64,000 bases of DNA, taken from NCBI GenBank assembly GCA_044892525.1, contig CM097888.1, forward strand, positions 89,714,001-89,778,000, read 5' to 3'. The translations under genes and the position numbers were made by a program. The DNA is from Schmidtea polychroa. Taxonomy: Eukaryota. Of the stretch, positions 2,661-47,168 are shown in pieces (positions within the stretch are counted from its first letter, which is position 1; the number at the start of each line of letters is the position of its first letter). Under the pieces are notes generated by a model. The model searched no databases and was not told the DNA's origin. It worked only from the letters and a program-made list of their open reading frames with translations.

Positions 2661-4909
2661 TAGAATAATAGTCGGTGTTTAAGAATTAAAAATTTTTATA
2701 AAATATTTTTTTAAGATTTCCTTTCTCATTTCTCAATTTTTTTCTTTCTGTGTTCTTCTCCAAGTTTAAGAATGCTATCTCAATTACCCTATCGGTTTTC
2801 CTTCAAGTTATTCTAATTATTTATAATATTATTTACTATTTAGTTATCCTCAGCAAATATATGAAAGTTGTTATATTATGCTATTTGATGATGATGTCAT
2901 TCACTGTCGCCTCATGTGTTAAAACAAACGATTTTAATTCTATAATATAAGTTTGTCTAAGTTTCATAAAATATAGAAGATATATTATGGCGTGACCTTT
3001 ATTTTAATTTAGAAACTTTGGAGATAATTTCCATGGAAAGTAAACATGTTTTGTATATAAATATTATATATTTTCATCGACCTAGATATTTTCCAGTGGG
3101 GTTTCTCCCGCGGTGACACTTCCATTTACTCATGTTCGCGTTTAGTATTGCGCTTCATAATGACCCAAGCAATGAGAGTTGCTCATCCATTCGCACGTAA
3201 TTCACTCATTTGTTCATTCTATGAAATCCATTTGATAATAGAGATTCAGTTCCTCAGTTACGCAATACAAATTTATTTTCTTTCTCATTTAGTCACTGAT
3301 AGGAATAATGATTTGATTATCACATATAAGCGTCATGTATAATTTATCATTAAGATATATTACTCAACTGAGAGCCCAGCTGCATTTAGATATTCTTTAT
3401 AATTCTTCAAGGCATTTATATAGCTCTTCTATTTCAGCATCCAACTCTACTTTTGATAAACATTCATTTGCTACTCCTCTTTTATGTAAATATTGACCTT
3501 CATCCTTTAGGTATTTTGCTATTGAGATAAATATTAGAAATTGATACATTCAAACAAATATAAAAATGTTTACTAAAAGTGGAAAAACGATTTCAAGACA
3601 TTTACATCTAGGCAATCTTTATTATGAAGGTGCCACATCAAATTATTAATTATTTATTTAATTATTAATTAATCTTAATTTAATTTTAATAATAAATTTT
3701 CATAGCACTGCAAGGCCAGCAATAATCATTGAGGGATTCTCTGATGTTTCACTGTAATTATTTGAGTAATTTGAATTAGGATATTAAATAATAATAATAA
3801 TAAGAATAATTATAAAAATATGTTCAAATCATTTTGTTTGACAAGAACTATTCAATCAGCCCAAGGATTGATTGAAAACAGTCAAATAATAATAAAGTAA
3901 TAAATAAAATTAATAGCTACAAAATAATTATTGCGTCAGTATGCCCTTCATTGCTACAGTATCCTGTCCGTTTGTTCACCATACAAATATGCTACAGTAA
4001 ATAAAAAATTCATTAAAACATTACTAAAAATATTTTGACCCCCTTTGGAAAATTTTAGATTTTGTATTGAAGTGATCAGGAGATATTTCATTTTATGTTA
4101 ATAATAATAATGTAAAAAGTATAAATATAAAAATAAAAATATATTCAAATAAATAATAATGAAATATATTCAGCGATAACTGATAAATATCAACCAAATC
4201 AAAATGGCCGCCTTTATTTATCATTTGGTGGAAATGTTATCAGAATAAAGGTAATTTATATTTTTATTATAAGAACTTTTATTTCTTCCAATTTCACTAC
4301 TGATTACTTTCTCCATTGAATTTATTAAAAAGAGAGCTTGAAGACTAAAAATCAATAATATATCGATGTTTGTTAATACTCGCGAATTTTAGGCACTGCC
4401 TTTTTCAAGTGAATTTATATTTTGTTTTGTTAGAGCTTTTTCTTTATTTGGTGGTTTTCACTGTTTTTGCGGGTACTCGGTAATATATTTATATATTTAA
4501 TGGAGGGGGATAAAGGAGCTTGACAAATATATATGTAATGGCAGTTCACTGGTGTGACACGTGAGAAATGTATTAGGAAAGGATAAAATATTCAAGAAAA
4601 TATAAATTATAGAAATCTTTATGAGGGCTGAAAAATGAAATTTGTCACTGATAATAAAAGAGCTCGCCATGTCACTTTCTGTAGTCAAATTGAATTTCTT
4701 TTCAATCTCTTCGGCATTTCATGAAATCAACCTGATCAAGATTTGAATTTGCATGGAATATCACAAAGCTTGAGATTTCAATTAACTTTTGAACCGGATT
4801 TGAAAAATAATTTAGAAGATATGCTATCAGTTTCTAGTAAATATAATTTATGATCAAAGGCAATTGTGACACTTATGGAATAATATTGTATAATTAATTG
4901 GGGGTCGTA

Positions 4910-7302
4910 CAGGCTCGTCGGTGGGGGTAGGGTGCAAATGCCCAGGTGGCCGGGTTCGATTTGTTATGTATTTAAATTTAATATTACTGACACTTAAGTT
5001 GACTTAACTACAATCAGTTTAAACTCAAGCATCTGAATTCCATCAGAATAAATTGAACATCAACAAGCAGTTAAATCAACATCGGTACCAATATTAAAAA
5101 AAACCAAATAAAGTTTTGAGTTTTTTAATGCTGAAATTACAAACTGTTATATTTACTAACCATGATTACTGAAGCTGAAACCATGCGTATCATTTGCGTA
5201 ATATAGAACACAGCCACGGGCCACAGGCCACTACGTCAAGTTAAACCTCATCTGCTATTTTATGAGTTAATAATATTATTATAATGTTTTTATTTAAATA
5301 ATTATATTAATTTATTAAAAATTAAAATCGTTTGTAACGATGGAATATAAGTACAAACCTGGCAAAGCAAAACTTGGTAGGCGCACATTATTTCAATTTG
5401 GAATCTGAAAATATGACAAATCAGAGCCTCTGCTCATTACTACCCCTGTCGGTTAGTCAGTGAAGTTGCAGTATCCTGCAGGTCAATTCTGTCAAGTGAT
5501 CAAGGGTGGTCAACACAGCAAGCATGGCGTAAGTTGTACAATAAAGTATCCTCTCGTGAGAAAAGTGACGGCCATCAAAATGCTATATACAGTGGAGAGT
5601 ATTAGACAGAAGATTTCACCACCGGAAAAATATAGTGTCTCAGATGGATAAAGAAGCAGCTGCAGAAGTGAAATACTGGAGAGATGTACTCAAAAGCATT
5701 TTAGTAGTGGTTTTATTTTTGAGCGAGAAAGGACTTGCTTTCAGAGGCTCTTCAAACTAAATTGATAACTACAATAATGGGAATTTTCTTGGAATTATAC
5801 ACCCGTTAGCCCAGTTTGATCCAATTTTAGTTATAGAATCTCTAATAACAGTACACCGCCTTCAAGCCCATTATCTCTCAGCAGATTCACAAAATGGCTT
5901 TATCGAAGCGTGCAGCGCCAAAGTTGTTCAAGAAATTCATGAAGGAAGAGAAAAATCAAAGTACTTTTCAATTTTAGTAGTTGCTACACCTGATCGTTCT
6001 CATACAGCACAAAGTACTTTCATATATTCATATGTACTAGATGGCAATTCAACTTTTGTTGTCAAAGAACGTTTTCTTGCATTTGTTGATTACAACAACC
6101 AAATTAGACAAGATATTGCAGACATCATTAAATCAGAACTGAATAATCATGGAATTCCTTTAGGAGATTGTCAAGGTCAGGGTTACAACAACGGATCAAA
6201 TATGGTAGGAGAGTATAAATGAGCACAAGCTATTATTGCAAACTGTAACCCTCTAGCAAACTCTCAAATTGTGGTGCGCATGGTTGAGATTTGTGCGGTA
6301 TGTATGCTGCTGAGTGTTGTAATGACGTAATTGCTTTTTTTGGAATAGCACAAAGTCCCCAACGATGGGAAATACTGCAAACATATATTGGATACTCACT
6401 TCATAACCTTTCTCAAACTAGATGGTCTGCACGCGTGGAAGGTGTAAAACCGATTGCAAAGCATCTGCCACTTATCAAGCATGTAATTATGAAGTGTAAC
6501 GAACTAAATTTGTCATCAAAAGACCGAACTGCAAAGAATCGAGCAATATATGAAACCATTCTGAATTGGCCAGAAATATTAAGGGGAAATTAAGGGAAAC
6601 TGATCTGGAGAAGGAATATGACAAAGATGTTAGTAGTGACTTAACTGAAGAAATGACACATCTTAAGTCTATTTATTCAGTAAACTTGCCAGATGAATGC
6701 CTTCATCCAATAGAAATGCTGAATAAACTTTACCAATTAAAGTTAGAATCCCTATTCCCAAATATAGCGATCGCTATCAGGATTTTCATTACGATTCTTG
6801 TGACTGTTGCTGATGCTGAAAGACCTTTCAGTTTGCTCAAGCTAATTAGAAGTGTCCAACGATCTGTTATGAAACAAGCATACAGGCTGAATGAACTTGC
6901 AACTCTTGCAATCGAATGTGACTAGGCAAAATCATTGAACCTTGATAATATTATACATGATTTGGCATCAGCTAAATTCAGGAAATTTCTTCTTTGACTA
7001 GCCTAAATTTGAAATTTAAAGTCTGAGTAAAATAGTTGTTGTGCAGTCGTATAGGTGCTTTATTATTACAATATTTTATTATTTTCCATTTATGTATTTG
7101 CCGGGGGGGTATTACTGCCTCCCCCCACATCATTGAATTATATCAACCCATGGCGGTTCATTAAATTGTATCAGTTTTTATTGTTTTTTACATTGAGATT
7201 CTTGCAAAATCATGTTTCACCCCCCCCACTCTAGTGATGAGATTGTTTAGAAGCCCATGAAATGCTCTGCCTAGGGGCCCAGAATTGCTGTCGGCAGGCT
7301 TG
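4910..7302 (+). mobile_element. Degenerate hAT transposon (ZMYM1-like/DUF4371-type transposase), full length but with many stops and frameshifts
   Basis: Peptide remnants LSERGLAFRGS, GNFLG, SKYFSILV..TPD.SH and C-terminal hAT dimerization region (FPNIAIAIRIFITILVTVADAERPFSLLKLI). Degenerate CA..TG termini; flanks gggtcgta (4902-4909) and gggtcata (7303-7310) are an 8-bp TSD with 1 mismatch. Confidence 0.85.
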
Positions 7303-9907: not shown

Positions 9908-11105
9908 TCAACATACAAAACCTAAATTAAAAACATTCAACACACGCGTATTCACTGCATTCTGTACATTGATTTTAGGATTGAAAGTTCTTATCAATAA
10001 TGCTTCACATATCACACGCTCAAAAAAATTATCAAATTTTTTTGATAATATTTTAAAAACCGACATCCCCAATTCTTCCATACAGACTTTATGGTGATCT
10101 TTAATATTAGACATTCTCCTTGGTCGACAGTGTTCCTGACCTCGAGTACAGAGGTGACGGGAAGCCTCTCCAATGTATGTGGCATTACACCCATTACATG
10201 TGAATTGATAAACGAGATCTGAGCACAATCCAACCGGCGTTTGAGATTTACTAACAAACATACTACGTACTTTGCACGATTTTGAGATGAATAATTCAAT
10301 TCACCCAGCAGTTTACCTATATTTCTTTTGAAATCTTTATATCCTTCAGAATACGGTAATTCCATCGTATATTTTGGCTCATCTTGTTTGTCAGTATCAA
10401 TACTCATATTCACTACATCATTCGACATATCAGTCAATTTACATTCATTCATACTACGATCCTTAGCATTATTCATACATTTATCAACAGTCTCTTTCAA
10501 CTTTAACAATAAAAACCGTTTTGAGTAGCCATTCTTCACCAGTAATTCAACTAATTTATCTACACTTTTTACTGAATTTTTAAAAGTGGAAGATGAGCAC
10601 CATGATCGATAAACCAATTCTTTCACAATATTTCTTTTATATTTAAATTTACAAAAACTCTCTGGGTTAGTATAGAGGCCGGTATCTGTTGGTGGTGAAA
10701 GCTGATAAAATTTTATACACAATTGGTTTTTCATCTTGAAAAGAAGCAATTTTCTTTTCTAAACATGCCAAAAATATTGACGCCATTGTTGGTGCTAAGG
10801 ACGAACCCATAGCCACTCCATCAATTTGTTCACACCATTCATTATTAAAAAAAATTAACTTTGGAAGTTGCAAACTCTCAAAGTTTCCTAAATGCATTTC
10901 CATCACACATATTATGCGCATTAATATTTTCATTCCATAATTCACAACATAAATCGATTGTTTCTATCAACGGGACATTAGTAAATGAACTACATACATC
11001 AAATGAAACCATATACTCATTAACATTATTTTTATTCAATTGTCCTATGCATGATGCAAATTCAAAACTGTCCTTACATTCAAACTCAGATTTTATTAAG
11101 AATTT
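9908..11105 (-). mobile_element. Penelope-like retroelement fragment (RT plus GIY-YIG endonuclease), 5'-truncated and internally deleted
   Basis: KDSFEF, MVSFDVCSSFTNVP, QIDGVAMGSSLAP (PLE RT motifs), thumb region TGLYTNPESFCKFKYK, GIY-YIG VYQFTCNGCNATYIGE and CEALLIRTFNPKIN. The YxDD segment is absent; frameshifts present. Confidence 0.9.
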
Positions 11106-11889: not shown

Positions 11890-12086
11890 CGCATCCAATC
11901 AATGGCAATAATTCCAGTGAGCAACGCCAGGGACAGAAAGGTGGAATGGGAAGGGTAAATATTTATTTGTTTTCATTTGCAATTGATTGTTGCTGTTGAT
12001 TAAAGCAGGCTTGGAGCTGTGAGGCATATAATTATCAATTTGCAATTTCACCTCTATAACCCCAATAGCTTTATCACATACACTGG
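11890..12086 (+). CDS. Two host exons (11890-11954; 12006-12086, continuing at 18260) interrupted by the 12087-18253 insertion
   Basis: tgtag acceptor, 51-nt GT-AG intron 11955-12005, phases match. With the insertion and one TSD copy removed the frame is open: RIQSMAIIPVSNARDRKVEWEG-RLGAVRHIIINLQFHLYNPNSFITYTGLEQTFIWLPSHPAATRLIKFLLF*. Confidence 0.5.
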
Positions 12087-12759
12087 AGTAGATGGTAGTG
12101 AGCTCCCCAGAACATGAGCTCCCCGCGACACATATACCCCCCCCCGGGGGAAATTTTTTTTTTAAATAAAAGGTCAAGGTCATTTATTTTTTCAAGGTCA
12201 AATTTTTTTTTCAAGGTCATATTTTAAAATTTAAATTTACAGAGTTTCCGCCAACGAAAATTATTCAGCGATAGCTCATTTTAAAGCCCGATCCAAGACC
12301 TTTCGATTGAGCTATTGAGGGTATTGGCATAGTTATATTAGCATAATAATATTGGCATAGTTATTAACGTTTTCCCGAGACCATTTTCAAGGTCATTTGA
12401 CTATTTTATTATTATTTTTCAAAATATTATTATTTTCAAGGTCATTTATTTTTTCAAGGTCATTTCAAGGTCGCGTGACTCATCCAAGGTCATTCCCAAG
12501 GTCATATGACTCATTAGGATGAATCATCAAGGTCATATTATTAATTTTTAAAATATTATTATTATTTTTCAAAAACATTATTAAGTGTCGCGGGGAGCTC
12601 ATGGTTTTCGTTTGCCCAAAAGTTATCGTTCCCATTATCCGAATTTATTAATCGATGGCTTAATTTAAAGCTTAGTGCAAGACCTTTCGAATGAGCTATT
12701 GAAGGTATCATCATCATTAATATTGGCATAGTTATTAACGTTTTCCCGAGACCATTTTC

Positions 12760-12995
12760 AAGGTCATTTGACTATTATTATTTTTCAAAATATTATTATT
12801 TTCAAGGTCATTTATTTTTTCAAGGTCATTTGTTTTTTCAAGGTCATTTATTTTTTCAAGGTCATTAATTTTTTTGAGGTCATTTATTTTTTCAAGGTCA
12901 TTTATTTTTTTGAGGTCATTTATTTTTTCAAGGTCATTTATTTTTTCAAGGTCATTTATTTTTTCAAGGTCATTTATTTTTTCAAGGTCATATTT
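12760..12995 (+). repeat. 18-bp tandem repeat (ttcaaggtcatttatttt) inside the left TIR; mirrored at ~17590-17760
   Basis: About 12 near-identical units; explains the spurious FKVIYF ORF 12768-13013. Confidence 0.9.
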
Positions 12996-13086
12996 AAAAA
13001 TTTAAATTTTTAGAGTTCCCGCCAACAAAAATTGTTCATCGATAGCTCTTTTAAAGCCCAATCCAAGACCTTTCGAATGAGCCATA

Positions 13087-13087
<1 letters not shown>

Positions 13088-13163
<76 letters not shown>

Positions 13164-13307
13164 GTATTAATATATATACTCCTAGTCTATCCGACAAAAT
13201 ATTCTGTCCCCCTATGGGTACTGCTCACAAGGTTACTGCTGACGCTCAACAACTCGCAAGGGTACAATGATTTTATTAAACAATGTAATAAAACACATAT
13301 TTTCTAA

Positions 13308-13381
<74 letters not shown>
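13088..13381. repeat. (TAT)n microsatellites at 13088-13163 and 13310-13381 in the left TIR; (TAC)n(TAA)n counterpart at 17148-17233
   Basis: Direct reading; explains the poly-Leu ORF 13032-13307. Confidence 0.95.
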
Positions 13382-16300
13382 GTATTAATATATACTCCTA
13401 GTCTATCCGACAAAATATTTTGTCCCCCTATGGGTAATGCTCACAAGGGTACTGATCACTAGGGTACTGCTCACACTCGACAAGTCACATGGGTATTATT
13501 CACAAAGTTACTTGTAAAAATATTCAAGACAACTTTAACATAAAAATTCTAAATATTATACTTTAAATATACACTAAAATTTATTACCACATTCACATTC
13601 ATCATCTCCACAGTTCATAACAATTTCAACAACATGATCTATACAATGTTTACTGATTGTTGATATATAGTTGTAGGTTGATAATGGATTTTAAAAGAAT
13701 TGATATATTAACGGGCTCAAGTGGGTGAAATTAAGGGATATAGCCGGTTGGATTTAGTGAGGATTTGGTTAAGATGGGAATATATGATTTTTAAGGAATA
13801 TATTCGGTTGGATGTTTAAAGGGGTAGAAATATTTGGTGAGGGATCGGTTAAGGTGGAAATGTTTTGAATATCTCTATTTAAATCGACAATTTTCTTATT
13901 GGTAAAATATCAATGTTTCAAGGGAAATAGTCAGTATTTAGCTATGAGTCAATAATAGTTCCTGTGAAATTATATCGTTTTAGGTTTATTAGGTTGTAAT
14001 GAATGTAATTGCTCAGTAATTTAGATTTATGTTTTACTTTAGAACCAGTTTTTATTAATTTTCTAATAATTATCCACGGTTTTATTAAGTCGTTTAGGGT
14101 TAATGATCAATTTACTTGGTTTTGACAATGAAATATTTGAAATCTTTAGAATTAATTGGGATTGATATCAAAGGCTATTGCTTTAAATTATTTTATTTAA
14201 GAATTTATTTTATTCATTGTGGGGATAACAGTGACAAAACTTGAGAAATATTGACTTAAAAGTTGGAAATCGACAACAGCTAAAGAAAATTGATCTTTAT
14301 TGAAGGAATTTTATGATTTTAATTAGATTTCTAGATTTTAAATCGGTTGAATATTAAGGGTAAAATCTATTGAAGGAATATTGTTATCGGATGGATAAAT
14401 CTTTCAATGATATTTTGCTAAATTACCTTTGCTAAATATTATTTTAAATGACTAAAAAAGAGAAAATTAAGCAATATTCATAAATTGATCGCACAAAATA
14501 TCCCTGTTTTGGTAAAAGGTTACTCAAAATCCCTATTTAAAAATGTTAACCATATATTTCTCACAAAGATATATTACACCCAATGATCATCTCATTAAAT
14601 TAGAAAAGAATTGTAACCCTATATTTCTAACTAATAAGCACCTTAATTGGTTAAATGATAACCAAATGATCATGTTTCCATTATAACTCCTTTTTGACTC
14701 GAACAAAGACAGAAATTTACTCCAAATGATAAAGACTTTCTACCAAAATTATCAATGAATATATGTTGTTATTAATGATTATGCATATCTCACTAAATTA
14801 TCTAAGAATTTTTAACTAATATACATATGCCTTAATTAATATACCCTTGCGACATGTTGAGTGCGACCAGTACCCTTGCGACTAATACCCATAGGGGGAC
14901 AGAATATTTTGTCGGATAAATTCAGACTATATATTTAAAAATTTACAATATGCTATGGTTTTTATTGATTAATTTGTTGTATATTGCATTGATACATCAA
15001 AATGTTAGATAATATTTATAAATTAACTAAAAAATACACAAAAATACACAAAATACTATATTACCTAAGAATTCTGTTATGTTTCTAGTTAAATAATTGA
15101 AATAATTGGTATCAATGTATCAACTATATCAAAATAATAACCAAGACCATTGTAACACATAATGTCAACTTTAAAATATTGGTTAGGGTTTCTTCTACTT
15201 TTCGATCATCTTCATGGTTCTTGCGAAGATATTTTTTTCCATTTTGATGAACTCATGGATATCCCTTCATCATATCATCACCATTTGGTAGTTGCGCCCA
15301 ATATATTTAATTACCAAGATTATTTCATATTATTCAATGTTTGAAAATTTTCTATATTATAGTACCGTCATTATGTATGGTAATAATTCATTTGACTTTG
15401 ATATTGTATTGATTTGTATTGAGAACTTACAGTATATAGTATGATATTCATTAATCAGTGTTGAATAGGCTTGACAATTGTGAACATTCTTCTTGTGACA
15501 CTTAGAACAAACGGTAAATACAAAACCGAAACTTGATTTTCTTTACAAATTGAACAAGTTAAATACCTTTTCTTAACATCGTTCAGTTTTTTTTCCGTTA
15601 GCTTATTTTCAATCAGTGTAAAATTTTTATGAAATAATTTTCCAAGTCAAAATTAAATACAAATTTATATTAAATTAATTTCAAAGACAGATTTCAATTA
15701 ACCACTACTAATAAAAATAATAGTAAATGAAAAGGGTAAATTTTAAAACTAACTAATAAATTTAGAAAGAGAATGAGAATTGATAGTAATAATTAAATTA
15801 AAGTAAATTATGGACATAAATTTTTAATTAAAGTAATAATTTTTAATCTATTATAAAAAAAAAAGTTTGAATGATAGTCAGGTTTTGAGAAATGAAAATT
15901 TTAATGAAATAATTTTTAAAGAAAATTTAGATGCAAATTTTACAAATAATAATAATGATAATAATGTTAATAAAATAATATTAATAAAAATAATAATAAT
16001 AATAATAATAATAAAAATAATACTTTATATTGCTAAGTATTAATAATGTAATTATATTTGAAAATTTTTTATTCATGTATAACAATTAATTAAAACAAAT
16101 ATAAATAATATTAATAGATTAAATTAATTAAAATGGAATTGAGAAATGATGCATTATATCAAATTATTGATCCAAGGGCTGTGGGAAAACATTATTTGTT
16201 TGTAAATTATTACAATCAAATATGTTTAAGTCAAAATTTAAAAGGTCAACCAGATACTTACAATCAAATATTTACAACATTGTATTTCTAACAAACAGCT

Positions 16301-17172
16301 AGATACCAAATACTTTCAACATGATACCACGTACTAACTAACTCTCAAACAACCAGATACTTACAACTAACTACTTACAATCAACTAAATATTCTTCATT
16401 GTATTTTATGAAATGCTTTTTAAATTAATTTTTTATCTGTCTTCAAAATATGTTTAATTACAATCAGTAGAAAAACATTTTCAAAATGTCTAAATTTAAC
16501 AAAAATGATGATTTTCATCAAAAAATGAATAATTGTCAACTCATCACTACGTGGGATTGATGATAATTTAAATTAAAATGAAAGACTATAGAATTCTAAT
16601 TTTCAAAACATTCTTCTTTTAATTGATTACTACTGACTTATTATTGCAATGTAAAAATCGCATTCAATAAATACTTATTGTTGATCAGTTTTATTATATA
16701 TACTCTGAGTTTATCCGACAGGATGTTTTGACCCTCTAAGGGTACTGGTCGTAAGGGTATTGCTAACACTCAAACCCCACCTACCCATTTACTAGATACT
16801 AGATACCAACAACCAGCTAACAACTAGATACTAAGTACTTACAACCGACAACAACCAGGTACTAAGCATTATCAACCTACAATTATATATCAACAATCAG
16901 TAAACATTGTATAGATCATGTTGTTGAAAATGTTATGAACTGTGGAGATGATGAATGTGAATGTGGTAATAAATTTTAGTGTATATTTAAAGTACAATAT
17001 TTGTCTTGAATATTTTTACAAGTAACTTTGTGAATAATACCCATGTGACTTGTCGAGTGTGAGCAGTACCCTAGTGATCAGTACCCTTGTGAGCATTACC
17101 CATAGGGGGACAAAATATTTTGTCGGATAGACTAGGAGTATATATTAATACTACTACTACTACTACTACTAC

Positions 17173-17237
<65 letters not shown>

Positions 17238-18805
17238 TTAGAAAATATGTGTTTTATTACATTGTTTAAAAAAAATCATTGTACCCTTGCGAGTTGTTGA
17301 GCGTGAGCAGTACCCTTGTGAGCAGTACCCATAGGGGGACAGAATATTTTGTCGGATAGACTNNNNNNNNNNNNNNNNNNNNNNNNNNNNNNNNNNNNNN
17401 NNNNNNNNNNNNNNNNNNNNNNNNNNNNNNNNNNNNNNNNNNNNNNNNNNNNNNNNNNNNNNNNNNNNNNNNNNNNNNNNNNNNNNNNNNNNNNNNNNNN
17501 ATATGGCTCATTCGAAAGGTCTTGGATTGGGCTTTAAAAGAGCTATCGATGAACAATTTTTGTTGGCGGGAACTCTGTAAATTTAAATTTTAAAATATGA
17601 CCTTGAAAAAATAAATGACCTTGAAAAAATAAATGACCTTGAAAAAATAAATGACCTCGAAAAAATAAATAACCTTGAAAAGATAAATGCCCTTGAAAAA
17701 ACAAATGACCTTGAAAATAATAATATTTTGAAAAATAATAATAGTCAAATGACCTTGAAAATGGTCTCGGGAAAACGTTAATAACTATGCCAATATTAAT
17801 GATGATGATACCTTCAATAGCTCATTCCAAAGGTCTTGCACTAAGCTTTAAATTAAGCCATCGATTAATAAATTCGGATAATGGGAACGATAACTTTTGG
17901 GCAAACGAAAACCATGAGCTCCCCGCGACACTTAATAATGTTTTTGAAAATATTAATTATATGACCTTGAAAATGATTTTTGGTAAAATGTTAATAACTT
18001 TGTCAATATTAATGATGATGATACCTTCTATAGCTCAATCGAAAGGTCTTGGATCGGGCCTTAAAATGAGCTATCGCTGAATAATTTTCGTTGGCGAAAC
18101 TCTGTAAATTTAAAATATGACCTTGAAAAAAAAATTTGACCTTGAAAAAATAAATGACCTTGACCTTTTATTAAAAAAAAATTTTCCCCTGGGGGGGAGG
18201 GGGTATATGTGTCGCGGGGAGCTCATGTTCTGGGGAGCTTACTACCATCTACTCACTGGGCTTGAGCAGACATTTATCTGGTTGCCTTCCCATCCGGCCG
18301 CAACAAGATTAATTAAATTTTTATTATTCTAGATAAATTTTAATATTTATTTATAACATTCTTTATATGAAGATTAAAATGATGTTTTGCATTAATTATA
18401 TTATTGTTGTTTGTTTGTTCGGTAAGTTGCGGCGGGATTTTGAAATGTTGATCAGCTGTGATCTAGAATTGGGAATAATTATGATTTTGATGTTATAATT
18501 TGATAATTATTGTTATTTATTGGCTTTTCATTGGATATTCATTTTGCATTTCAGGATTCTGGATTGGATGGTAAAGGTTGGACTTTATGATTTATTTTAT
18601 TTTTATAACTTTGTTTTAATTTTTATTTATATTTATTATTCTAACATGATAAAGAAAATAATAATAATTATAATAAATAGTCAATCAAATATTTGTTTTA
18701 TAATATATTTCCACAGTTTTCCTGTCATTATCAAGTAAGATAGAGAAATATATATATATATATATATCATCAATATTCCTTGATAAATCTTCCATAATAA
18801 TTAAG

Positions 18806-22491: not shown

Positions 22492-25400
22492 AGTTATGGA
22501 AAGTTGTTTGTTTTAATAATATTGTTTTTAGTGTTTTTTGGAAAATATATTTTAACTGTATTTATTATTGATCTTATGAATTTAGAAGTTGAAGACATCA
22601 TAACTGGCGACCACGCCAAGGAAATCAATGCGATAGGAAAAAAGAAAGGAACTAAGAATATGTTAGATTCCTTGTCAAAACAAGCACGTGAGATGCTAAA
22701 TTTTAATGTCAGAAAGTTTGACGGAAAAGTTGGATCTGAAGCCGAACTTTGGCTAAAGGATATTATGGAATGGCTGAGAATAGAAGATCAAAGTCTAGTA
22801 GACGCATTGGATCTTTTGTTGACAGATGCGGCATCGATGTTATGGGAAGCGGCGAAAATAGCGAAGATGACCGATGAAATGGCAAAAGAGTGGTTTATAG
22901 AAACTTTTACATTAAGGAAAACCATTACTAACAAGATTGTGGAACTAGCTCAAATTCAGCAAGAAAGAGATGAAAGATTCCAAGTCTTCGAAATACGAGG
23001 GATTGAAAGTGTATTTAGCTCTGGAATGTCTGATGAACAGATTGTTCGAGACATTATTTCAAACAGAGCGAAAGACAATAGAGTAAAAGAAATATTCTTA
23101 TCAGGGAAAGTGACAAGTTTTGAAGATGTCAGGGATATGGCAAAAATTCAGGAGAAGATTGAGATGACGAATGACAATAAATTCAATATTGATGCCATAA
23201 GAAGAGACTCTTACGCATCAGTAATGAAAAATGGTAAATTCGAGGGTAGCCGAGACCAAAGAACAATTGTGTAGACAACTGCACATCAACGCGACGAACA
23301 CCGAGAGATTAATCATGAGAGAATAGACCTTGGAGACAGGAAAAATGAACAGTTAGACATATTGCTACGAAAGTTCAAAGGTATTTTTATGGCTTCAACG
23401 TTTGATCTCGGATTTACGAAAGTTGTTCAACATGAAATGAATATAGTAGGTGGGCCTGTAATGTTACAGCCAAGAAGACAACCAATGCATTTAGAACAAA
23501 AGCTTGACGAACTTGTCACAAACTTATTAGAAGCAAGAGTTATTAGAAAATGCAAAAGTGCATGGAACGCGCCACTAGTGATTGTGGCTAAGAAAGATGG
23601 ATCAATAAGGATGTGTGTCGACTATAGAGGATTGAATGCGATCACTGAAAAGATATCTTTTCCAATGCCAGATACACGATTTCTACTGGATTGTCTGGCA
23701 GATTCAAAATATTTCACATCCATCGATCTAGGTCAAGCATATTATCAAGTTGGAAAGGCGAAGGAAATTCAAGAGTTCACGGCTTTCAGTACAAGGCAAG
23801 GACAGTTTTGTTTTAACCGACTTCCTTTTGGACTAGCAACCGCCCCTGCGACGTTTCAAAGAATGATGCACTCAATGTTGGATGGAATATTATTTAGGGG
23901 TGTTGTTGTCTACCTCGACGACATTCTTGTCTATGGAAAAGACAAAGAGGAACACAATAACCGATTAGAGGAAGTATTCAGAAGAATTCAACTAACGGGG
24001 TTGAGAATTAACTCAGAAAAATGTAATCTGTATAAAGAAGAATTGACATTCCTAGGGCACACTGTAAGTGCAAGTGGGATAAAAACGAACGACAAGAAGA
24101 TTAAAGAGATTCAAAATGCAGAAATACCAGTATGCGCCAAACAATTAAGATCCTTTTTAGGTATGACCAATTACTATAGGAAGTTTATAAAAGACTATGC
24201 GAAAATTGCGGCTGTGAGAAAAAGATTAATTGGTCAGAAGATTGCAACAATAGTTTTGAATTACTTAAAACAAAGTTGTGTGAAGCTCCAATTCTAGATT
24301 ACCCAAGAATGGATAGAAACTTTATTCTGGATACAAACGCTAGTTTTGGGGCCATCGGAGCAGTTTTATGTCAAGCTAAAGAAGATGGTACTGAAGTGGT
24401 AATTCCATATGGGTCGAGACACTTGACCGCGCATGAAAAAGGTTATTGTGTGACTAGGAAGGAGTTACTGGCTATACACGAATATGTAATGTATTTTAAA
24501 CAATATCTATACGGAAAGTCATTTGTAGTACGAACGGATCACAAGGCGTTGGTTTTCATGAGACACACAAAAAAACCGATAAGCCCGCAATTTCAAACCT
24601 GGCTAGCCAACCTTTCCGGATATGATTTCGATCTTCAATATAGGAAAGGAGAGGAACATGGAAATGCGGACGGAATATCAAGGATTAAAGGGATGTTAAT
24701 TGCACAATGCCAGACTAGACATGAAGACGCAAAAGAAGAAAAAGCCAGAGTAAGACATATCAGCTCATTACAGAAGACTGAGTCGATGACAAAACTCTTA
24801 GAAAAGCAACAAGATGATGTAGATTTCATTCACATGACAAGAGTGTTACAGGAGAAGAGGAAAAAAATGACTTGAATAAAAAGAAATTTCCTTTCAATTT
24901 GCATAACAACATAAAATTAGAAGATGGGTTTTTATTATTAGAGAAGAATGGTAAAGATGTCATCCTGGTGCCGATAGACTACTCAAATACGTTAGTTAAA
25001 GGAATACATACTGAAATGTGTCACATTGGAGTAAAGAAATTAAGTAGCTATATGAGCAACATATTTTTTTGGCCAAACATGCAAGAAACTATACAAAACT
25101 GTTTGAGAGTATGTGAGATATGCTGCAGAAGGAAAATAGTGCAGGAGAAGACAAAGGAACAATTGTTGCCGATAATAAGTTCAGAATTTTTAGAGCAGTT
25201 GGTCATTGATATAGCACACATGTAGAATGGTGGAGTGTACAAGTATATGCTAGTTATCATTGATCGCTTTAGCAAAATGGTCAGTCTGACCGCACTGGAG
25301 AGACAAGACGAGAGATCGATTTTCAAAGCCATATTGGAGAAGTGGATATACCGTTTCGGAAAACCGCGAAATTGTCTGTCAGACAGAGGGAAGAACTTCG

Positions 25401-26095
25401 ATAGTGGTTTTATGAAAACAAATCTAGGAAGACTGGGTATTATGCAACAGTTCAGTTCACCATATCAGCATCAATCTAACGGTTTAGTTGAGAGAACAAT
25501 ACGGACAGTCAGAGATTTGCTGGCAACATCATTAGCAGGTGGACTAGGAGAGCGAAATTGGGCGGAGTTACTTCCTCGAGTAGAATTTTGTATCAACGTG
25601 ACACAACAGAGCGCGACGGGATTTTCTCCATTTGAAATTGTTTTTGGGAGGAAGATTAACCTTCATTCAACATTGCCTCATACGACATTGGATACAGTTG
25701 AGATACATAGATTGGTAAGAGAGAACAGTGAGAAAGCAGCTAAACGAATGAAAGAGATGGAAACAGAGAAGAGAACGAATCGATGTTTCACGTTGGAGGA
25801 GAAAGTATTAGTTCATAAAGAACCACAAAATCGCGACAAAGATGGACTACAGTATGAAGGTCCGTTTGTCATATCAAAGTTTTTGTCAGAGCACCAGGTA
25901 GAAATTGAGTGACGGGACGACAAAGAAACTCAGACGAATTGAATGGCTTAAGAGATGGGCAGTTCCTTAAAGAAGGGGAGAGTTATGGAAAGTTGTTTGT
26001 TTAAATAATATTGGATTTAGCGTGTTTTTGGAAAATATATTTTAACTGCATTTATTATTGATCTTATGAATTTAGAAGTTGAAGACATCATAACT
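22492..26095 (+). mobile_element. Ty3/Gypsy LTR retrotransposon, both LTRs present, internally deleted (no zinc knuckle or protease), frameshifted pol
   Basis: LTRs 22492-22605 and 25981-26095 (AGTTA..TAACT); 5-bp TSD TATAA (22487-22491, 26096-26100); PBS TGGCGACCACGCC; PPT aaagaaggggag; gag, RT (YLDD), RNase H (TDHKAL), integrase (H2C2, SDRGKNF, NGLVER) and GPF motif. Confidence 0.95.
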
Positions 26096-27490: not shown

Positions 27491-29485
27491 TCAGGTTGCA
27501 AATTCTACGCACATTCTTATTGAGCCGTCTTTCTTTCCTACCACAACCAATGGGGAGCTCCATGGACTTTTACAGCGTCTTATAACTCCAGCTTTTGTTA
27601 ACTCTTTTATCATATCGTCAATTTTCTGTTCTAGATGCATCGGTTGTCGTCTTGGAAATTGCATTGTTGGATTCCCAGATGTATTAATTTCGTGCTCTAC
27701 GATTCTTGTGAATCCTAAATCAAATCTGGCTGCCATAAATATTGACCCGAATTCATCTAATAATTTGTTAATTGTTGGCAATTCATTTCTTCCCAATTCC
27801 TTTTTTGCTTTTTGCCTTCTCTCGTCATCAGTATAATTGCTAATCTTTGTTTCGGATTCGATATTGTTAATTTCCATCAACTGCACTCCAAATGCTTTCA
27901 AAGTATCTATCCCACCAATAAAACCTGGAAATATATTTTTAATAACAATTATTTTGATAGTCCTCATCTTATTGTGCCAATAAACATTTACTTCTGTACA
28001 TCCCTGTGGTTTTTGAGTTCCTGGAAAAACTCCACATATTTCGATTTCACTGCTGCTTAAACGTGGACTGCCAATTTTATGCCATGTTTCCTCATTCATC
28101 ACTGTAATTGAAGCTCCAGAATCCCACAACATCTCAATCTCAACATCATTTATCATCATCTTGCTCCATTCTCTTCCATCTGACGTCGCATACCTCATTC
28201 TCTCTGTTCTGTCATTCCGATTTTCTTCCTTTACAACCCCATTGACGAAATGTATGCAATAGAGTTCCTCGTGTTTTTTTCAGTTTCCACATCATGAATT
28301 GCATAATCATTATTTGATTCTCTTGTTTCTGCATCATCCGAGTAATTTCTTCCGTTTTCGTCGTCATGCACACAATGTTCTCATAGTTCTGTTGTTCTTT
28401 CCTTCTTAATAAATAACAATCACGAAAATTATGCCCTCCCTTACCACATATCAAACATTTATCTTTTAGTGGACATTCATATCTTCTGTGCCCATATTCG
28501 CCACAGCAAAAACATTGGCCTGACTGTAATTCACCGTTTCTTGGATCAGGAAGGCCTCTAGATCGATTGTATAATCTCTTGGCAATGTGTTTAAGCGAAA
28601 CCGTTGGTGTCCTTCTCTGCACATTCCGTTCGACTGTGTGATTCATTTCGTTATTTCTGTTATACGAATTATCTGGTAAATTCTCTCTTCTGTAATTTCC
28701 TTGGCTTCTTAATACATTGGTGTTACTTCCATTTGTTTCTCTTGTAAACGTTTCTGAATTTCTTCTCCTTGTTGCTTCCGCGTAACTACTCTTCTTTATT
28801 ACCATAATTTCTTCAGTCTTTTCTTTTGATTCCACTTTTTCGTAAATTTTGGCCAGTTGATTTCGTTCTTCTGCTGTCATCGATGGTTTCATTGTTAGAG
28901 CATCCTTTAATCTTCTGTCTCTGACGCGTCCAGTTATAATTTCATTGGCAATCTCCTCTACCCTCATTCCTGAATTAATAACTTCACTCACTAATTTCAA
29001 TACCCTGATTTCGAAGGTTGCATATCTCTCATTTTCCTCTGTCAAATTGCAGCAAGTTCTTTAATCTTGTCTATAATAGTCAATTTAATTGTAAATGTTT
29101 CGGAAAACCATTCTTTAGTTGCTTTATCTGTTGTTTTTTCTGTATTGAAATTTTTCCACAGTGTAGCCGCTTCATCGCAAAGGAGAAAATCGAATGCCTC
29201 GGTCCTCTTCAAATCATTTCTAGCGATCCAATCATCAATTGCCTGTATCCATTTTTCAGCTTCCTTGGTACATCTGCCGTCGTATCTTCTAATCTCCATA
29301 TCCAAGAGTTCTTGCGCACGTTTCGGTAGCGCGTCTCTCGCAGACTTTTTCCTTCTCCTCGAGTCGTCATTGTGTGAACATTTTCGGCGTGGTCGCCAGT
29401 TACAACAATTGGTTCCATCTAAAGATTTATTAATATTAACACAGAGTGATCACTCTTAAATAGTATTGTATATAGCGTAATAACT
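27491..29485 (-). mobile_element. 3'-truncated Ty3/Gypsy element related to 22492-26095: one 88-bp LTR, gag, protease, start of RT
   Basis: LTR 29398-29485 with AGTTA..TAACT ends; PBS TGGCGACCACGCC; gag alignable to the first element; two CCHC knuckles (CFCCGEYGHRRYEC, CLICGKGGHNFRDC); protease WDSGAS; RT start SPWSSPLVVVGKKDGSIRMCV. Confidence 0.92.
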
Positions 29486-30092: not shown

Positions 30093-33000
30093 TTTAATTT
30101 GTCCCCTCTGGACATCGCAATAAAGAATAAGAATGAGGAACTCATTGAGATTATCAAGGGTGAAATATTGGAACGTCAAGTATGTTTTCACGTGTTTATC
30201 ATTCACTGTATATTTATCGCTAAAATGATCCAATTATTCATTTTGATTGGTCAATATTCAAATTTGGCACAAATATTTATTGATTCTATTAAAACAAATT
30301 GATAATTTATTGCTATGATTCCTTTGATTAAGATAATTGGGGCATTTTTGTATTTGTGATCAATTTCTCCTTACATTGATGGAATCATATTATTGAGGTC
30401 GCCATTTTTATTTATATATTTGTTTTCAGTTTTTGCAGATCTTAACTTAACATTATTCTATTCAGATTTCAATGATGGGCCTGCAATGCAATCAGCGCTG
30501 TAATCACGAGTTGTGCCCGACATGTAAGTTATCAATTTATATCATATTTGCTTATATAATAATTGTAGTGATTTACATATATTGCGTAATTATTGTTGCA
30601 CTAGGTGATTGTATGGGGGAAGGCATATCAAGGGATAATGAGGGATTGTCATTGCAGCATGAGTGATAGGCAATGCAATTATATTTCATTACAAATATAT
30701 TACGTTGCGGTATTTTCAGCTCGCATAATTAATGAGCATAAATAAATTATTGCAGTTGTGAGATGGGATGGTAAATGAAATAGAGATTTGTGAAACTAAG
30801 GAGAAATATAATGGAAACTGTTGGAATGAAATAGATATGAAAAGCAGAGAAATGCCAATTTGCAGAAAATCAATAAAAACAAATCATAAATCAAAGAGAT
30901 GGATGTGGAGGGATTTGTTAGGAGGAAGATAGCCAAGAGATTGATTGTTGTAGATTATTTTAGCTCAGAGCTATTAATTATAGGGATAATTCAATTATAT
31001 AAAGATAAAATACGTGTAAAATCGTCTAACGTTATGAGAGAGGCAATATAGGATAGATATGGAGTGATAATTAAGGAAATTAGGTGAGAAAACTTGATAA
31101 AGTTAAAGGATAATTGTGTACTATGAGCGCATAGCTTCAACAACCATTCCCCCATTTACTGCTTATATAAAATAGTAACTAATAAATATTTTACTTTTCT
31201 AACAGATAACTAAATAGAGGGATTTTGAATAGTTTAATTATTAAATATTTTTTATTTTATTATTAATTAAATATTTATTTGATATTTTTTATTTTTCTAA
31301 TTGGTAATTAACCATTAATATTAATATTTATGTTATTGTTATTTATTTAATTATTAATTTGTTACTGATATTATTTAAATATTTATTTTATAATTATTTC
31401 AATAATAAACAAATACGAGGTAAACTGAAACGAAGTTGACAAACGAATTTACATAAGGCATTGACTTGGACGCATCATGAATATCATTTGTATTTATAAT
31501 TTGGCTTACTTTGTCATTCATTGCTATAATCGGTTATTTCAAATTAATATAAAACTAGCAATTTTCCACATTTTTTATTTTAATTAAAAATTTCTCCACA
31601 ATTCGATATTTCAAACAAAATCTCCCAATCCAAATTAAGTCAAAGTAGCAATTCTATTAATTTCTACTAATTTATTATAATTTATTTATAACGAAAGGCC
31701 ACTAGAACATTTGTTTTACGATATCAATTATATATATTTATATCATGTGAAAAAATAAAAATTGGGCAGCCTTTATAATAATAATGATAAATTAATTATT
31801 TCTATGTTTAGCTCTTAGAAATAAAACATTTGTGAAAGGATCAGAAATTGGAAGTGGAGGATTTGGAGAGGTTTATAAATGCAAGGGATCTGGGATAGAT
31901 ACAGAGTTTGCTGTCAAGCGGGTAAGATTGAGAGATATTGACGTGAAATATATCGAAGGAAATATTCATAACTTCCTATCCAAATTGGAGCACAGCAGAA
32001 TCATTCGATATTTTGGAGTGATCCAGACAGAAGACCAATTATGCATTTTCATGGAATACCTATCTCAGGTGAGTTATACATTTCATTTCATCTGCATTAA
32101 TTACCTTTTTCCTCTGTCCGTAAGCTAATTGAATATAAATCATGAAAGGTCAGTGAGGAAATGTAAGAGTAATTATTGCAATATGCAGATGCAGGGGACA
32201 TGTTATTTGTTATTGCAATAATTTACTGCAACGTGAAATTTATGCTTGCAAACAATATTTATATAAAACAAATATATTATATTGGAATCGCTTTCTATGC
32301 AAATTAGTTAATGATATAATTTATTAGATTTTTATCCAGTGACATATCTTTAAATTAATCTAAATAATATATTTGGTGAATTTCAGGGTTAATAATAGAT
32401 ATTCCACTTAAATGACTGGCAGAATAATTATTCCCGTTTCTAGGGTTCCCTGGAGGATCGAATCAAGAGGGAAAAGGGCCTTGCAACAAATGACGTAATC
32501 ATATACAGCAAGCAGACCCTCGAGGCTCTGGAATTCCTACATGGAATCGCAATCATCCATCGAGATATAAAACGTAAATAAAAGCATTTATAATATTTCT
32601 ATTTCAATTATTAATCAGCGGCAAATATATTGATTGGCCCCGAGAATAATATAAAATTAGCAGATTTTGGTCTCAGCCGGCCATTGATCAATTGACTAAT
32701 GTTCGATTATCTCTTGGATATCTTGAATTCCTGGCTCCCGAAGTTCTAGAACTCCTGGACAATTTAGATCACAGCCTGTCATTGACGAGTACCACTAGGC
32801 AATCTTCTGTTGGAACTGTCAATTTCATGGCTCCTGAAGTTCTCCAACAATCTATCTATACGAAGTCAGCTGATATCTGGTCTGTGGGAGCCATTGTAAT
32901 CAATATGATTACTGGTTAGCAATATTTTATTAGTTTCTTTTCATAAAGTAAATATATTTGTCATTATTTATCTATTTAATGTACTAACTAAACCATTGAA

Positions 33001-34834
33001 GGCTAAATTTATATTGAATTACCTGTAAAATGGCGAGATTATCATTCCTAAATAGCAGCTTGTGCCAAAAATATACAACTTCTTGATTAGTTGCAAGTTT
33101 ATCTATAACATTGTGATGTGACATCAAAATCAATATTGAACAATAAAAATATCAATTTTAAAGCTTTTTGATTACATTACAATTTTTAATATTAATTTAT
33201 TTAATCATTTTTTCTTTTTATTGATCACTAATTTGATTTTTTCCATAATAATTTTATTTTTATTTTGACAACAGCTCAATGTTGATCAGTATGATACTTT
33301 CTATTTATTTACATTTGTATTCTTCACCAGACATTTTTCGGGTACCAAAAGAAGTATTAGTCACTATTAGGTTATATAAATATGTATTATTTTGTTATTA
33401 TTTATATTGTTATGCTGAGTTTCACGGAAATTGTAGAGCCCTGCCGAATCTGCAGTAAAATCATTCGTGTTTAACAAGATTAATTGATGAAATCTTTATA
33501 TTTATACAACGATATATAATTAAATATATCCTTATAAAACCTTTAATTCCTTATAACCAACGATAAGAATAAATATTCTCTTGCAAATTGTCTAACAAAT
33601 CGTTTTCTCTGAATGTTTTATCTATAATTATCTTCCGCGATTTATCTCTTTATTATTTCCTTTTATTCTGATGAGGCTTGCAATGCAATTGTAGGTAATA
33701 AATGCGAGAAAGAGCAGGAATATTATTATCTTTTATAAATAGTTGTTGCAAGATTGATACATGTAAATTTGTTTTCGTGTCTTTTATATTTCATATTTCC
33801 CTTCAGCCGGATAATATTTGCGGCAAAATTATGGATAATAAACTCACAAAATTAGAAGCTTTGTAGAAACTTTTGTTTTCTTAGAAATTTTATTCTTAAT
33901 TTAGTTTCAATGATTTTTTTTTCATTTTGTTATGAATTGAATTTTTGCAAATATTACATAACAATTACAATAGCAAAAATTAACTAAAAATAAGTAGTAT
34001 CATTACATAACTTCCCCCTTTTAAACCGGAGCTTAACGTTAACAAATTTTGTTTGATTTTTAGTCTTTTTTATTAGATGGTCAGAAAAACAAAATAAAAA
34101 TTAACATTCAAATGTACAGTCACATTTTTGCACTATTTGTTTGTGCATTTTGTTGTTGTTGTTTATTCGTTTTTATTTGAAACAATCGCTATATTTTTTT
34201 TGTTTGCTCCCTTTTCCTCGCATATTGGTAGTTACTCCTGTGTTATTTAGTGTTTCATGTTCATCTTATATTATTAATAATAAATTATTAAAAAGAGCTT
34301 GAAAACTGTAAATCAGTAAAAATATTGATATTTTTGATTTTCACGAATTTTTGGAACTGCCCTTTTCAAGTTTAATTTATTTAACGCATTAAACAATTCG
34401 GTCCCCATAGAAATTATAGAGATTTAATACGAAATATGTAATCAGAATAATATTACTAAAATATAAATAAAAATCATATAAATATATCAATTAATTTATT
34501 TTTAACCAATCACAGATCTCAGAATGTTTAATTCAAGTTATTGTTTGAAATAATAAAATATGTAAAATTCAAAAGTTTTTATAATTATGTTATTATTTAT
34601 TTAAATGTATCAACAATGAGTGACATTAATTTACATTCAGGCAAAGCGCCATATCACAATATGGATTGGGTGCATGCCATGCGCAAAATCCAAGAAACTA
34701 AAAAGCTTGAAGTGCCTCCAAATATATCAGAGGAAATGAAAGGGTTCATTGAAGCAATGTTAAATCCAGATTCAGATCAACGGCCCACCGCAACTCAATT
34801 ATTACAATTGAAATTATTTTCGGAATTGGAATAA
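30093..34834 (+). CDS. Ankyrin-repeat-containing Ser/Thr kinase, STE11/MAP3K-like; exons 30093-30179, 30466-30523, 31812-32068, 32444-32573, 32619-32914, 34641-34834; 1-nt frame discrepancy in exon 32619-32914
   Basis: GSGGFGEVY, FAVKRV, IFMEYLSQGSL, HRDIKPANIL, DFG, GTVNFMAPEV, DIWSVG, RPTATQLL. GT-AG introns with consistent phases except one 296-nt exon that should be a multiple of 3. Upstream exon FNLSPLDIAIKNKNEELIEII is ankyrin-like. 5' exons unresolved. Confidence 0.8.
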
Positions 34835-35662: not shown

Positions 35663-37079
35663 CAGTGCCGAATTAACCATTAGGCTAAGTAGGCTTAAGT
35701 CTAAGGGGCCTACTTTTGAGATGTTTGAAATTAATAATTAAATTTTATGTTAAAAATTATGCACTATTGACTACTGAGCATTCGAACACTTTAACTCACT
35801 TAGTATTTGCTTTTATTTGCGCTAATTATTTTTTTGTCTATCTATTTTTTGTCCTTTTGTTCAACTATATATCTCTATTTATATCAATTTAAAGATACTA
35901 ATTCTAAGTATAGTAATTTTTATTTACTATTTATACTCTATTTCTTATTATAATAATTATTAATGATTTATTTATATATTTTTTAGTCTGTATATTTTAA
36001 AATGTATATTTTGTGGCTTTGAATATATATTTTCTTATTAAATTTTAGATACTAATTTAGCATGAGCAAAAAATGTGAAAGTGGTGCTTGCAAGCGCAAG
36101 AGAAAGCGACTTCAAGAGCTTGAGGTAAAGAACATCACATCAATCACTGCTTACATGCATGCATCAACTAGTACTACAACATCAACTGGAAGAAAATCTC
36201 ACTGAAGCGGTACACCCAGCTGTATATGAGGAAACAGCCATTGCACAAACTCAAAATGAAATTATGGAACTAATTCAAGAGCCACTTACTGAACACGAAG
36301 ATAGAAACGAGTCACAAGGATATTTATCTACTGTAACAGACATTGGCTTTGGTCGGATTTATCACAAAATGACGTATCATATTGGAGAGAGAAAGGCCCC
36401 CTAAAGTTCAGCATCATTGTGGACCGTTTTTAAATTCTAAGCGAGTTTATAAGAATCAGTCCAGGTTTTATACAAAATCTATTTTTTATTCAACAAAAGC
36501 CAATGGAGAAAAATATACCCTAGAATGGCTTGTGGTTACCTAGAAAGCCGAATGTTTTGCTTTGTTTGTAAACTCTTTCCCAAGATTGCATATTTAACAG
36601 CATTAGCTTCTGAAGGATTTAATGATTGGAAAAACTCTAGTATCATACAAAAGCATGAAAATTCGGGAAATCATAGGAATTCTTTGTTAATATACTTAAC
36701 AAGATCAAAAAAGAAAGCTTAAACTTCAAAGCTAGAGGAAAAAATAAGAAAAGAGCAGCAGTACTGGTGTTACGTTGTAGAGAGAGTTTTCGCTGTAATA
36801 TGCACTCTTGCAGAGCGAGGCTTACCTTTTAGAGGAGAAAATGAAAAATTTGGAAATCCAAATGACGGCAATTTCTTTGGTCTTTTAGAACTAATTGCAA
36901 AATTTGATCCATTTTTAAAGGATCATATCGATCGGTATGGAAATTCCGGGACAGGAAAGCCTTCCTATCCGTCCAAAACTATATGTGAGGAAATTATTGA
37001 ACTCGTGGCAAAAAAGTCAAAAACGCAATTGTGACAGCAGTGAAAAAGGCTGGATATTTTAACTTTTCAGTAGATTCCA
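35663..37079 (+). mobile_element. 5' half of a degenerate hAT transposon (TTF-type zinc finger, DUF4371-like)
   Basis: Terminus CAGTGCCGAATTAACCATTAGGC; MSKKCESGACKRKRKR start at 36062; MFCFVCKLF; LAERGLPFRGENE..DGNFFGLLELIAKFDPFL; truncated after GYFNFSVDS. Confidence 0.85.
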
Positions 37080-46300: not shown

Positions 46301-47168
46301 GGAGTTATGGATCCAGTCAACATTGGGTAAATATTTAGTTAATATTGATTGTATTATTTAAAATTCAATTATATTTCAATTACTAAATTAGCGGGGGGGG
46401 GGGGGGAATAATGCAAAAATACCATATTGTCAATGTAATGAAATATTAAATGGGATATTATGGAATTATATTGAATAAATGTTCATGTTTAGCTTATCCA
46501 ATCCAGGTGAAATTTGATAAATTCCAAGCAGCATTATGGCTGGTCAACACTCCTAGCCTTGGTGATGGCCAGCATTACCCTAACCCTGAGCAATTGGTGG
46601 GCTGCATCCATGAGATATCATTCAATGGAAACCCATTGCAAATGGCGATATCTGGCACTGCAATCTCCACCAAATGCCCAAAAGCGTGCGTCAATGACGT
46701 TTGCAATGCTGGCGTATGCCATGAAACATATAGCATAAAGCCATTCTGTGATTGCACTGATTCCTTCCTGAATGGTCCATTCTGCAATTCAAGTGAGTAA
46801 ATGAAATTGTTTCCTGAATATTTTGCTGCCTTAATTTATCTGATTCGCATTTGTTATTGATATGGGATGATTTGGGGGGGGGGCGGTTCACTTGTGTGTT
46901 TGCTATTGGCTATGAGTTATTATTGAATCACTTGATCCCGCTTCCCTGTCCATGAGCAGTAATAAATCATGAAATATATTAGCACAAATGGCCTAGCTCT
47001 GATTCAATCAATATTTGAATTATTATCATCTCATTATTTGTTTAAATATTCAGGTGGATCAGATGAGATGGATCAGAACTGGAAATATCCCCATGAAACC
47101 TTCCAATCTCAATTTATCAAAATTTCATGGCAAAATCTTTCTGATGGCATTTTTGGCATTGACAACGG
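43363..47168 (+). CDS. Laminin-G/EGF extracellular protein (neurexin/CASPR-like architecture); exons 43363-43602, 43661-43789, 46493-46792, 47054-47168
   Basis: Four GT-AG-bounded open exons with matching phase-1 junctions; LVGCIHEISFNG (LamG end) followed by EGF CVNDVCNAGVCHETYSIKPFCDCTDSFLNGPFC. Orthology cannot be assigned. Confidence 0.75.
44092..44286 (+). pseudogene. Partial duplicate of the LamG/EGF exon (copy of 46532-46726)
   Basis: 195 bp, 6 mismatches counted, offset 2440 bp; lacks the original acceptor and the second half of the EGF. Confidence 0.85.
44545..46423 (-). mobile_element. Merlin DNA transposon, full ends, degenerate transposase, with a nested insertion
   Basis: GGTA..TACC TIRs (~90 bp, imperfect); exact 8-bp TSD ATATTGTC (44537-44544, 46424-46431); minus-strand remnants KICGSCGNFM..WKCRKAC, IGEPGTIVEIDESLFVKRKY, IAPGTTIISD, TGAHTENVEN. 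Confidence 0.9.
45700..45920 (+). mobile_element. IS630/Tc1-type DDE transposase remnant nested in the Merlin
   Basis: YNPFLNPIESV then (frameshift) SKIKNGVR resembles the YSPxLNPIExxWSKxKxxVR motif. Confidence 0.55.

Follow-up and report, generated by a model that had tools for sequence, protein, structure and literature searches.

Mavericks, also known as Polintons, are described as carrying a protein-primed DNA polymerase (pPolB) and an rve integrase and as being flanked by 6-bp target-site duplications (TSDs), and in the proposed model of their replication a racket-like single strand is copied by protein priming that starts at the terminal repeat (PMC4196379, PMC8097293). Those of vertebrates are 12.7-24.6 kb long, with a median copy number of 8 and a maximum of 287 (PMC8097293), and Anolis is reported to have fewer than 10 copies and no non-autonomous ones (PMC3014272). 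Reduced forms have been discussed as well: Tlr1 was once regarded as a non-autonomous polinton (PMC5499653), and polB-less polintons of Pieris butterflies appear to have stayed mobile (10.1101/2025.02.07.637071). Here we analysed a 64,000-nucleotide stretch of Schmidtea polychroa contig CM097888.1 (hereafter the window), in which positions 12087-18253 form a 6,167-bp element that, judging from its ends and its homology, descends from a Maverick. It is probably one copy of an abundant non-autonomous Maverick family that would depend on a full-size Maverick in that genome for the enzymes of its copying and integration. The concept is already known, both from the polB-less mobile polintons of the preprint and from the non-autonomous Polinton families, with Polinton ends and 6-bp TSDs and without enzymes, that Kapitonov and Jurka (2006) and Repbase reportedly contain. 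A description of a high-copy gene-less Maverick family was not found in the main texts of the open-access literature, subscription journals and Repbase being outside the scope of that search.

A first-pass annotation of this DNA had called the element Polinton/Maverick-like on the basis of AGTAG..CTACT termini and an exact 6-bp TSD, and both features are present. The motif AGTAG, of the AG..CT type, marks the left tip (12087-12099, forward strand) and CTACT ends at 18253, and the two tips were observed to differ at 2 positions over their first 59 bp. The hexamer CACTGG lies immediately outside both tips as a direct repeat (12081-12086 and 18254-18259, both on the forward strand), and the probability of its recurring by chance is about 6e-5, or 6e-4 for any 6-base match. 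The features by which Maverick ends are recognised, namely a 6-bp TSD, long terminal inverted repeats (TIRs) and AG..CT ends with a short terminal repeat, are all found in this element.

The TIRs make up almost half of the element, as had been proposed. The left arm spans 1,600 bp (12087-13686, forward strand) and the right arm 1,387 bp (16867-18253, reverse strand) including 138 N, which together correspond to 48.4% of the 6,167 bp. The 138 N represent an assembly gap at 17363-17500 that lies opposite a 96-bp (TAT)n tract in the left arm. Identity between the arms is 98.2%, 98.2% and 98.1% in three of four segments, and the fourth is unlike, with 250 nt on the left (12316-12565) and 79 nt on the right (17951-18029). 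Substitutions and several indels of 20-170 bp also set the arms apart. The left arm is composed of internal direct duplications, where 12258-12465 resembles 12642-12831 (84%), 12174-12315 resembles 12946-13085 (90%) and 13092-13238 resembles 13310-13454 (97%). The description of these ends as unusually long holds only mildly, as vertebrate Maverick TIRs of 46-1,447 bp (PMC8097293) and butterfly polinton TIRs of about 2 kb (10.1101/2025.02.07.637071) have been reported.

These observations bear on whether the locus is an assembly artefact, arising either as a fold-back or as a chimera in which two copies were wrongly merged at the N gap. The contig was scaffolded from short reads and has nine N gaps within the 64 kb, a very high copy number would favour collapse, and no reads were placed across the gap or the junctions. 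However, 500 bp of the right arm lie on the interior side of the gap, and, given the differences between the arms and the matching TSD copies on either side of the gap, a fold-back or mis-join is very unlikely.

The homology that ties the element to Mavericks was found in its interior, where a 5' stub of a Maverick A32-type packaging ATPase gene is located at 16133-16245 on the forward strand. The stub comprises about 38 codons, contains a frameshift near 16172-16177 and ends after 16245. Its 43-residue frame at 16171 matches P0001, a 207-aa Pox_A32 ATPase, at 87% over 23 aa (E 1.6e-3 among 5.8 billion proteins), and this was the only match obtained among three candidates. Alignments to each of the five ATPases tested begin at a start codon at 16133 and reach 16245 after a switch to a second frame. 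A metagenome scan for ATPase relatives found 110, from which 80 loci were kept. The ATPase profile reached 14.9 bits on the interior against a control maximum of 0.2, and it alone exceeded 8 bits there among 75 clusters of open reading frames (ORFs) from 33 of the 80 loci. Likewise, when the 1,426 ORFs of all 80 loci were compared with the element by tblastn, the ATPase was the sole match. A profile of 122 ATPases found nothing further in the element past the stub, and a search of viral contigs for the ATPase gave no match at first and then one weak match of 37%.

The gene neighbourhood of these ATPases is Maverick-like. In the longest related loci the order is a TBP-like ORF, the ATPase, an rve+chromo integrase, and presumed capsid, protease and polymerase ORFs, where the polymerase label is presumed from motifs and the capsid label from gene order. 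Family-B polymerase motifs were read by eye in the presumed polymerase ORF; sequence comparison of the presumed capsid and polymerase ORFs gave no solved-structure match, and no Pfam capsid or DNA_pol_B_2 family was assigned to them. Of 26 related loci, 24 have the word TATAAACA upstream of the ATPase start, and the element has TATAAATA, one mismatch from it, at 16100-16107 on the forward strand and at the same distance from the ATPase start as in the relatives. This octamer is likely a remnant of the ATPase promoter. Sites within one mismatch of TATAAACA arise often in AT-rich DNA, and the element has 11 of them, so only the position of TATAAATA is informative. The end structure and the homology, the latter from both the stub and the gene neighbourhood of its relatives, thus support the proposed Polinton/Maverick origin.

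Some further features of the related loci were also noted. The TBP-like ORF (PF00352, E 5e-18) and variable cargo were seen at 2420-2866 of locus L008 and upstream of the ATPase in loci L003, L009, L013 and L021, the cargo including, for example, a RING finger (PF13920) in L009. Other cargo ORFs appeared by eye to be ubiquitin-conjugating-enzyme-like and dual-specificity-phosphatase-like. The word TATAAACA stands in front of 34 of the 94 ORF starts examined in these loci.

Alternatively, the element could be of the Foldback, Mutator or another cut-and-paste type, with long modular TIRs, and have picked up a Maverick fragment. Foldback elements have long TIRs made of tandem subunits, and the arms of the present element are built in a similar way; the window is also rich in cut-and-paste transposases. 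However, Foldback and Mutator elements have TSDs of about 9-11 bp and P elements of about 8 bp, against exactly 6 bp here, and the AG..CT ends, the ATPase stub and its upstream motif indicate a single source. A transposase trace was not found in the element by Pfam or tblastn, and we regard such a capture as very improbable.

The interior (13687-16866; 3,180 bp, 25% GC) has little else that resembles coding sequence. Its longest ORF is 67 aa against a shuffle mean of 76, which means that its open-frame content is no greater than that of shuffles, and its six frames gave no Pfam matches. The claim that the element has no replication genes stands for pPolB, unmatched by Pfam, phmmer, tblastn and hidden Markov models (HMMs) of the lineage, and for the rve integrase, unmatched by Pfam, tblastn and the lineage HMMs; a packaging-ATPase stub is nevertheless present. 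Intact packaging ATPase, protease and capsid genes were not found among the 75 ORF clusters searched, where the frameshifted ATPase stub was the only match. Because the pPolB, integrase and capsid searches all came back without a match, the element is not an autonomous Maverick. A pPolB remnant suspected by eye at 15027-15646 (reverse strand) was rejected, as phmmer gave no matches in 1.84 billion proteins, none of the six frames matched Pfam and the lineage pPolB profile was silent. For the C-x2-C stretch at 15357-15560 (reverse strand), the idea of a RING finger gained no support, since the RING cluster gave no match and the best Atlas score was 0.77 with low recognition. Rfam gave no matches over 12000-18400 at E 1.

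The interior was found to be highly repeated. Contigs from sequencing runs were aligned to 13392-16870 (3,479 bp) for 4 of the 23 listed runs, where X1, X2 and X3 come from one organism in two studies and X12 from a second organism. Six runs of one organism contain 46-67% of the sampled words, and the best of them may come from the very sample that was assembled. The 3,479 bp were matched by 60,500 contigs in X1, 11,883 in X2 and 9,896 in X3, with 30 of 30 bins covered in each. These contigs are mostly 90-99% identical to the element, at least 10% of the depth differs at 128-150 sites, and the depth profiles across the three runs correlate at 0.97. Relative to the depth of the long contigs listed, the summed depth has a median ratio of 3,500-5,000, and division by 31 for worst-case contig overlap lowers this to 110-160. 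Summed depth is not itself a copy number, and the interior is therefore taken only to be present, as a rough inference, in about a hundred to several thousand copies.

A one-off fossil would be the simplest alternative, in which an autonomous Maverick was inserted and later gutted in place, and the depth comes from many larger relatives that share non-coding segments. Degraded fossils account for 96% of vertebrate Maverick loci (PMC8097293), the interior depth is uneven, none of the contigs listed spans the interior, and the present copy is unlike the majority of others at many sites. Three observations speak against it. In three runs, deep coverage extends over the whole of the gene-less interior. 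In addition, one contig in X1 (record 5) and one in X3 (record 31), with 13 and 10 differing letters and 9% diverged, cross the ATPase frameshift with no gaps, so that at least one diverged copy has the same break. Furthermore, the arms remain 98% identical, which leaves little time for the in-place loss of all trace of coding from the interior. A fossil of this kind is unlikely on these grounds, and the non-autonomous spread implied by the first-pass annotation is supported by the high repetition of the non-coding interior and by the frameshift common to a diverged contig.

The looseness of the copy estimate is one of several points that weigh against the reading of the element as one copy of an abundant non-autonomous family. 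Depth along the interior varies more than 10-fold between bins, so interior segments are probably common to several related families, and the exact 6.2-kb form may be less abundant. The aligned stretch (13392-16870) excludes the tips of the element and hence the ends and TSDs of other copies. The two contigs that cross the frameshift may represent one genomic copy, and this evidence comes from 12 of the 30 indel rows, those listed, and from a minority of the joints and loose ends. None of the contigs listed extends across the truncation at 16245 or across the boundary between the interior and either arm. TIRs like those of the element were found in none of the 14 related loci checked. A helper or a second full copy was not seen, and the end patterns found nothing related in the viral, metagenome and prokaryote collections. 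P0001, P0002 and P0003 are candidates for the autonomous partner.

In these collections the end and motif patterns gave no matches in metagenome contigs, 0 and 1 in viral contigs and 1 in prokaryote genomes, and the single viral and prokaryote matches were rejected as isolated chance occurrences of 18-20 bp. The X12 contigs cover 27 of the 30 bins very unevenly, with high depth at 14204-14551, 14784-15131 and 16292-16755 and thin depth in other segments; bins without cover were not counted as absence. One X12 contig joins 13441 to 15050, and the X12 segments possibly belong to a sister family with a different interior.

Each arm has its own inverted pair of a 19-bp GC-rich subterminal motif. 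In the left arm, the outer copy (12113-12131, forward strand) and the inner inverted copy (12585-12603, reverse strand) close a 453-nt loop; in the right arm, the inner copy (17913-17931, forward strand) and the outer copy (18209-18227, reverse strand) close a 277-nt loop. These inverted pairs had been noted before, with the positions 12586 and 17914 one base off. The motif is exact at all four sites and has no further site in the window even at 3 mismatches. The sole arm segment that disagrees sits within the loop closed by this pair, and its right-arm version (17951-18029) is similar to the second unit of the left arm. When each end was folded as single-stranded DNA, the 19-bp stem had a probability near 1, with z values of -4.3 and -5.0 and none of 100 shuffles equal. 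Such a stem is expected from the inverted pair alone and gives no indication of function. The idea of hierarchically folded ends is reproduced as a computed possibility and not as a function, and paired protein-binding sites would fit the motif equally well.

A 36-bp motif, here called M, occurs in six copies, two in each arm and two in the interior. In the left arm it is located at 13190-13225 and 13406-13441 (forward strand), each copy following one of two (TAT/TTA)n microsatellites within 13087-13391 (forward strand), and the second copy contains a perfect 16-bp palindrome at 13409-13424. The right-arm copies are at 17092-17127 and 17321-17356. The interior copy at 14834-14950 (M at 14881, reverse strand) is inverted with respect to the left-arm copies at 79%, and a more degenerate one at 16675-16773 (M at 16714, forward strand) is inverted with respect to the right-arm copies and 78% similar to the left-arm copy. 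As both interior copies run opposite to those of the arm closer to them, the nested inversion of the tips recurs further inward.

The 18-bp arrays and triplet microsatellites that had been reported were found in both arms, the arrays with 11 copies on the left (12793-12991) and 7 on the right (17597-17723), and the triplets at 13087-13173, 13310-13391 and 17149-17235. Exact TCAAGGTCA words number 17 in the left arm (12174-12991, including the 18-bp array) and 9 in the right arm, such that the arms contain 26 of the 27 in the whole window, where 0.4 would be expected. The word is the canonical Esrrb consensus (PMC8451941), and the arrays may be candidate words for a host nuclear receptor.

The preferred reading, an abundant non-autonomous family, can be put as a sequence of steps. 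A TBP-encoding Maverick would have lost nearly all of its genes while its TIRs, ATPase promoter and first ATPase codons were retained, and the gutted form would then have been amplified in trans. Under the published model, the integrase of the helper would excise and reinsert the element to yield the 6-bp TSD, and its protein-primed polymerase would copy the element starting at the AGTAG tips. The four exact 19-bp motifs and the six M motifs are likely candidates for cis sites used by helper or host proteins, and local hairpins at each end are possible from the modelled folds. A stronger version, in which the element is a true polintovirus satellite, that is, a gene-less 6-kb replicon of thousands of copies which a TBP-encoding Maverick replicates, integrates and packages, seems to us quite unlikely. 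Under that version the 19-bp and M pairs would be dedicated origin and packaging signals, the TCAAGGTCA arrays would couple activation to the state of the host cell, and the element would be the most stripped-down member of a series running from full Mavericks through ATPase-only minis to gene-less palindromes.

The surroundings of the element contain other repeats and genes. Degenerate tandem arrays of 55-60 bp and 80 bp occupy 1895-2660, and 2591-2716 is 76% similar to the AT-rich stretch 15793-15922 of the element. An unbroken 427-aa ORF for a pogo/Tc5-type DDE transposase (PF03184, PF03221) lies at 37404-38687 on the reverse strand. Two gag-pol remnants of long terminal repeat (LTR) retrotransposons stand face to face at 22492-25912 (forward strand) and 27491-29449 (reverse strand), the first with an RVT_1 match and the rest read by eye. 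At 5761-6925, 9908-10758, 36723-37034, 49133-49582 and 57100-57762 we observed hAT-type transposase fragments (DUF4371, Dimer_Tnp_hAT), what may be part of a Penelope-like endonuclease, and an integrase-like ORF that had no match in Pfam. Host exons at 31796-34834 and 46450-46800, for a protein kinase and a LamG/EGF protein, indicate an animal host with AT-rich DNA; a search with a kinase exon gave no homolog.

Few Mavericks are usually found in any one genome, and their mode of replication is so far a model. If the preferred reading is true, a gene-less derivative at hundreds of copies or more would mean that Maverick enzymes act in trans, and the parts kept by all copies (the AGTAG tip, the 19-bp pair and motif M) would be candidates for the origin and the integrase site. 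The ATPase stub links the family by homology to a defined helper lineage, a link that purely gene-less palindromes do not have.

Among known systems, Foldback and Mutator-like elements share with this element long TIRs of tandem subunits and variable loop lengths between the arms, whereas its TSD length and end sequence do not fit theirs and it has no transposase link. With autonomous Mavericks (polintoviruses and adintoviruses), as they are described in PMC8097293, PMC8502044 and PMC6431247, it has in common the 6-bp TSD, the AG..CT ends, the long TIRs and the ancestry of its A32-type ATPase. It differs from them in its length of 6.2 kb against 12.7-24.6 kb, in being without pPolB, integrase, protease and capsid genes, and in TIRs whose length is at or beyond the upper end of the vertebrate range. 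The end motif of vertebrate Mavericks is (AGT)2, with which the tip of the element agrees at five of six bases and differs at the sixth, and its repetition is likely above theirs. The polB-less polintons of Pieris are TIR-bounded derivatives that are likewise apparently mobile after loss of the polymerase, but they keep other genes and carry long interspersed nuclear element (LINE) or LTR cargo, whereas this element has neither an intact gene nor recognisable cargo. Miniature inverted-repeat transposable elements (MITEs) and large retrotransposon derivatives (LARDs), which are non-autonomous derivatives of other orders of transposons (PMC6431247), also provide only the ends in cis, rely on enzymes in trans and may outnumber their helper. 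Compared with a MITE, however, the present element is far larger and is linked to a protein-primed, virus-like replicon.

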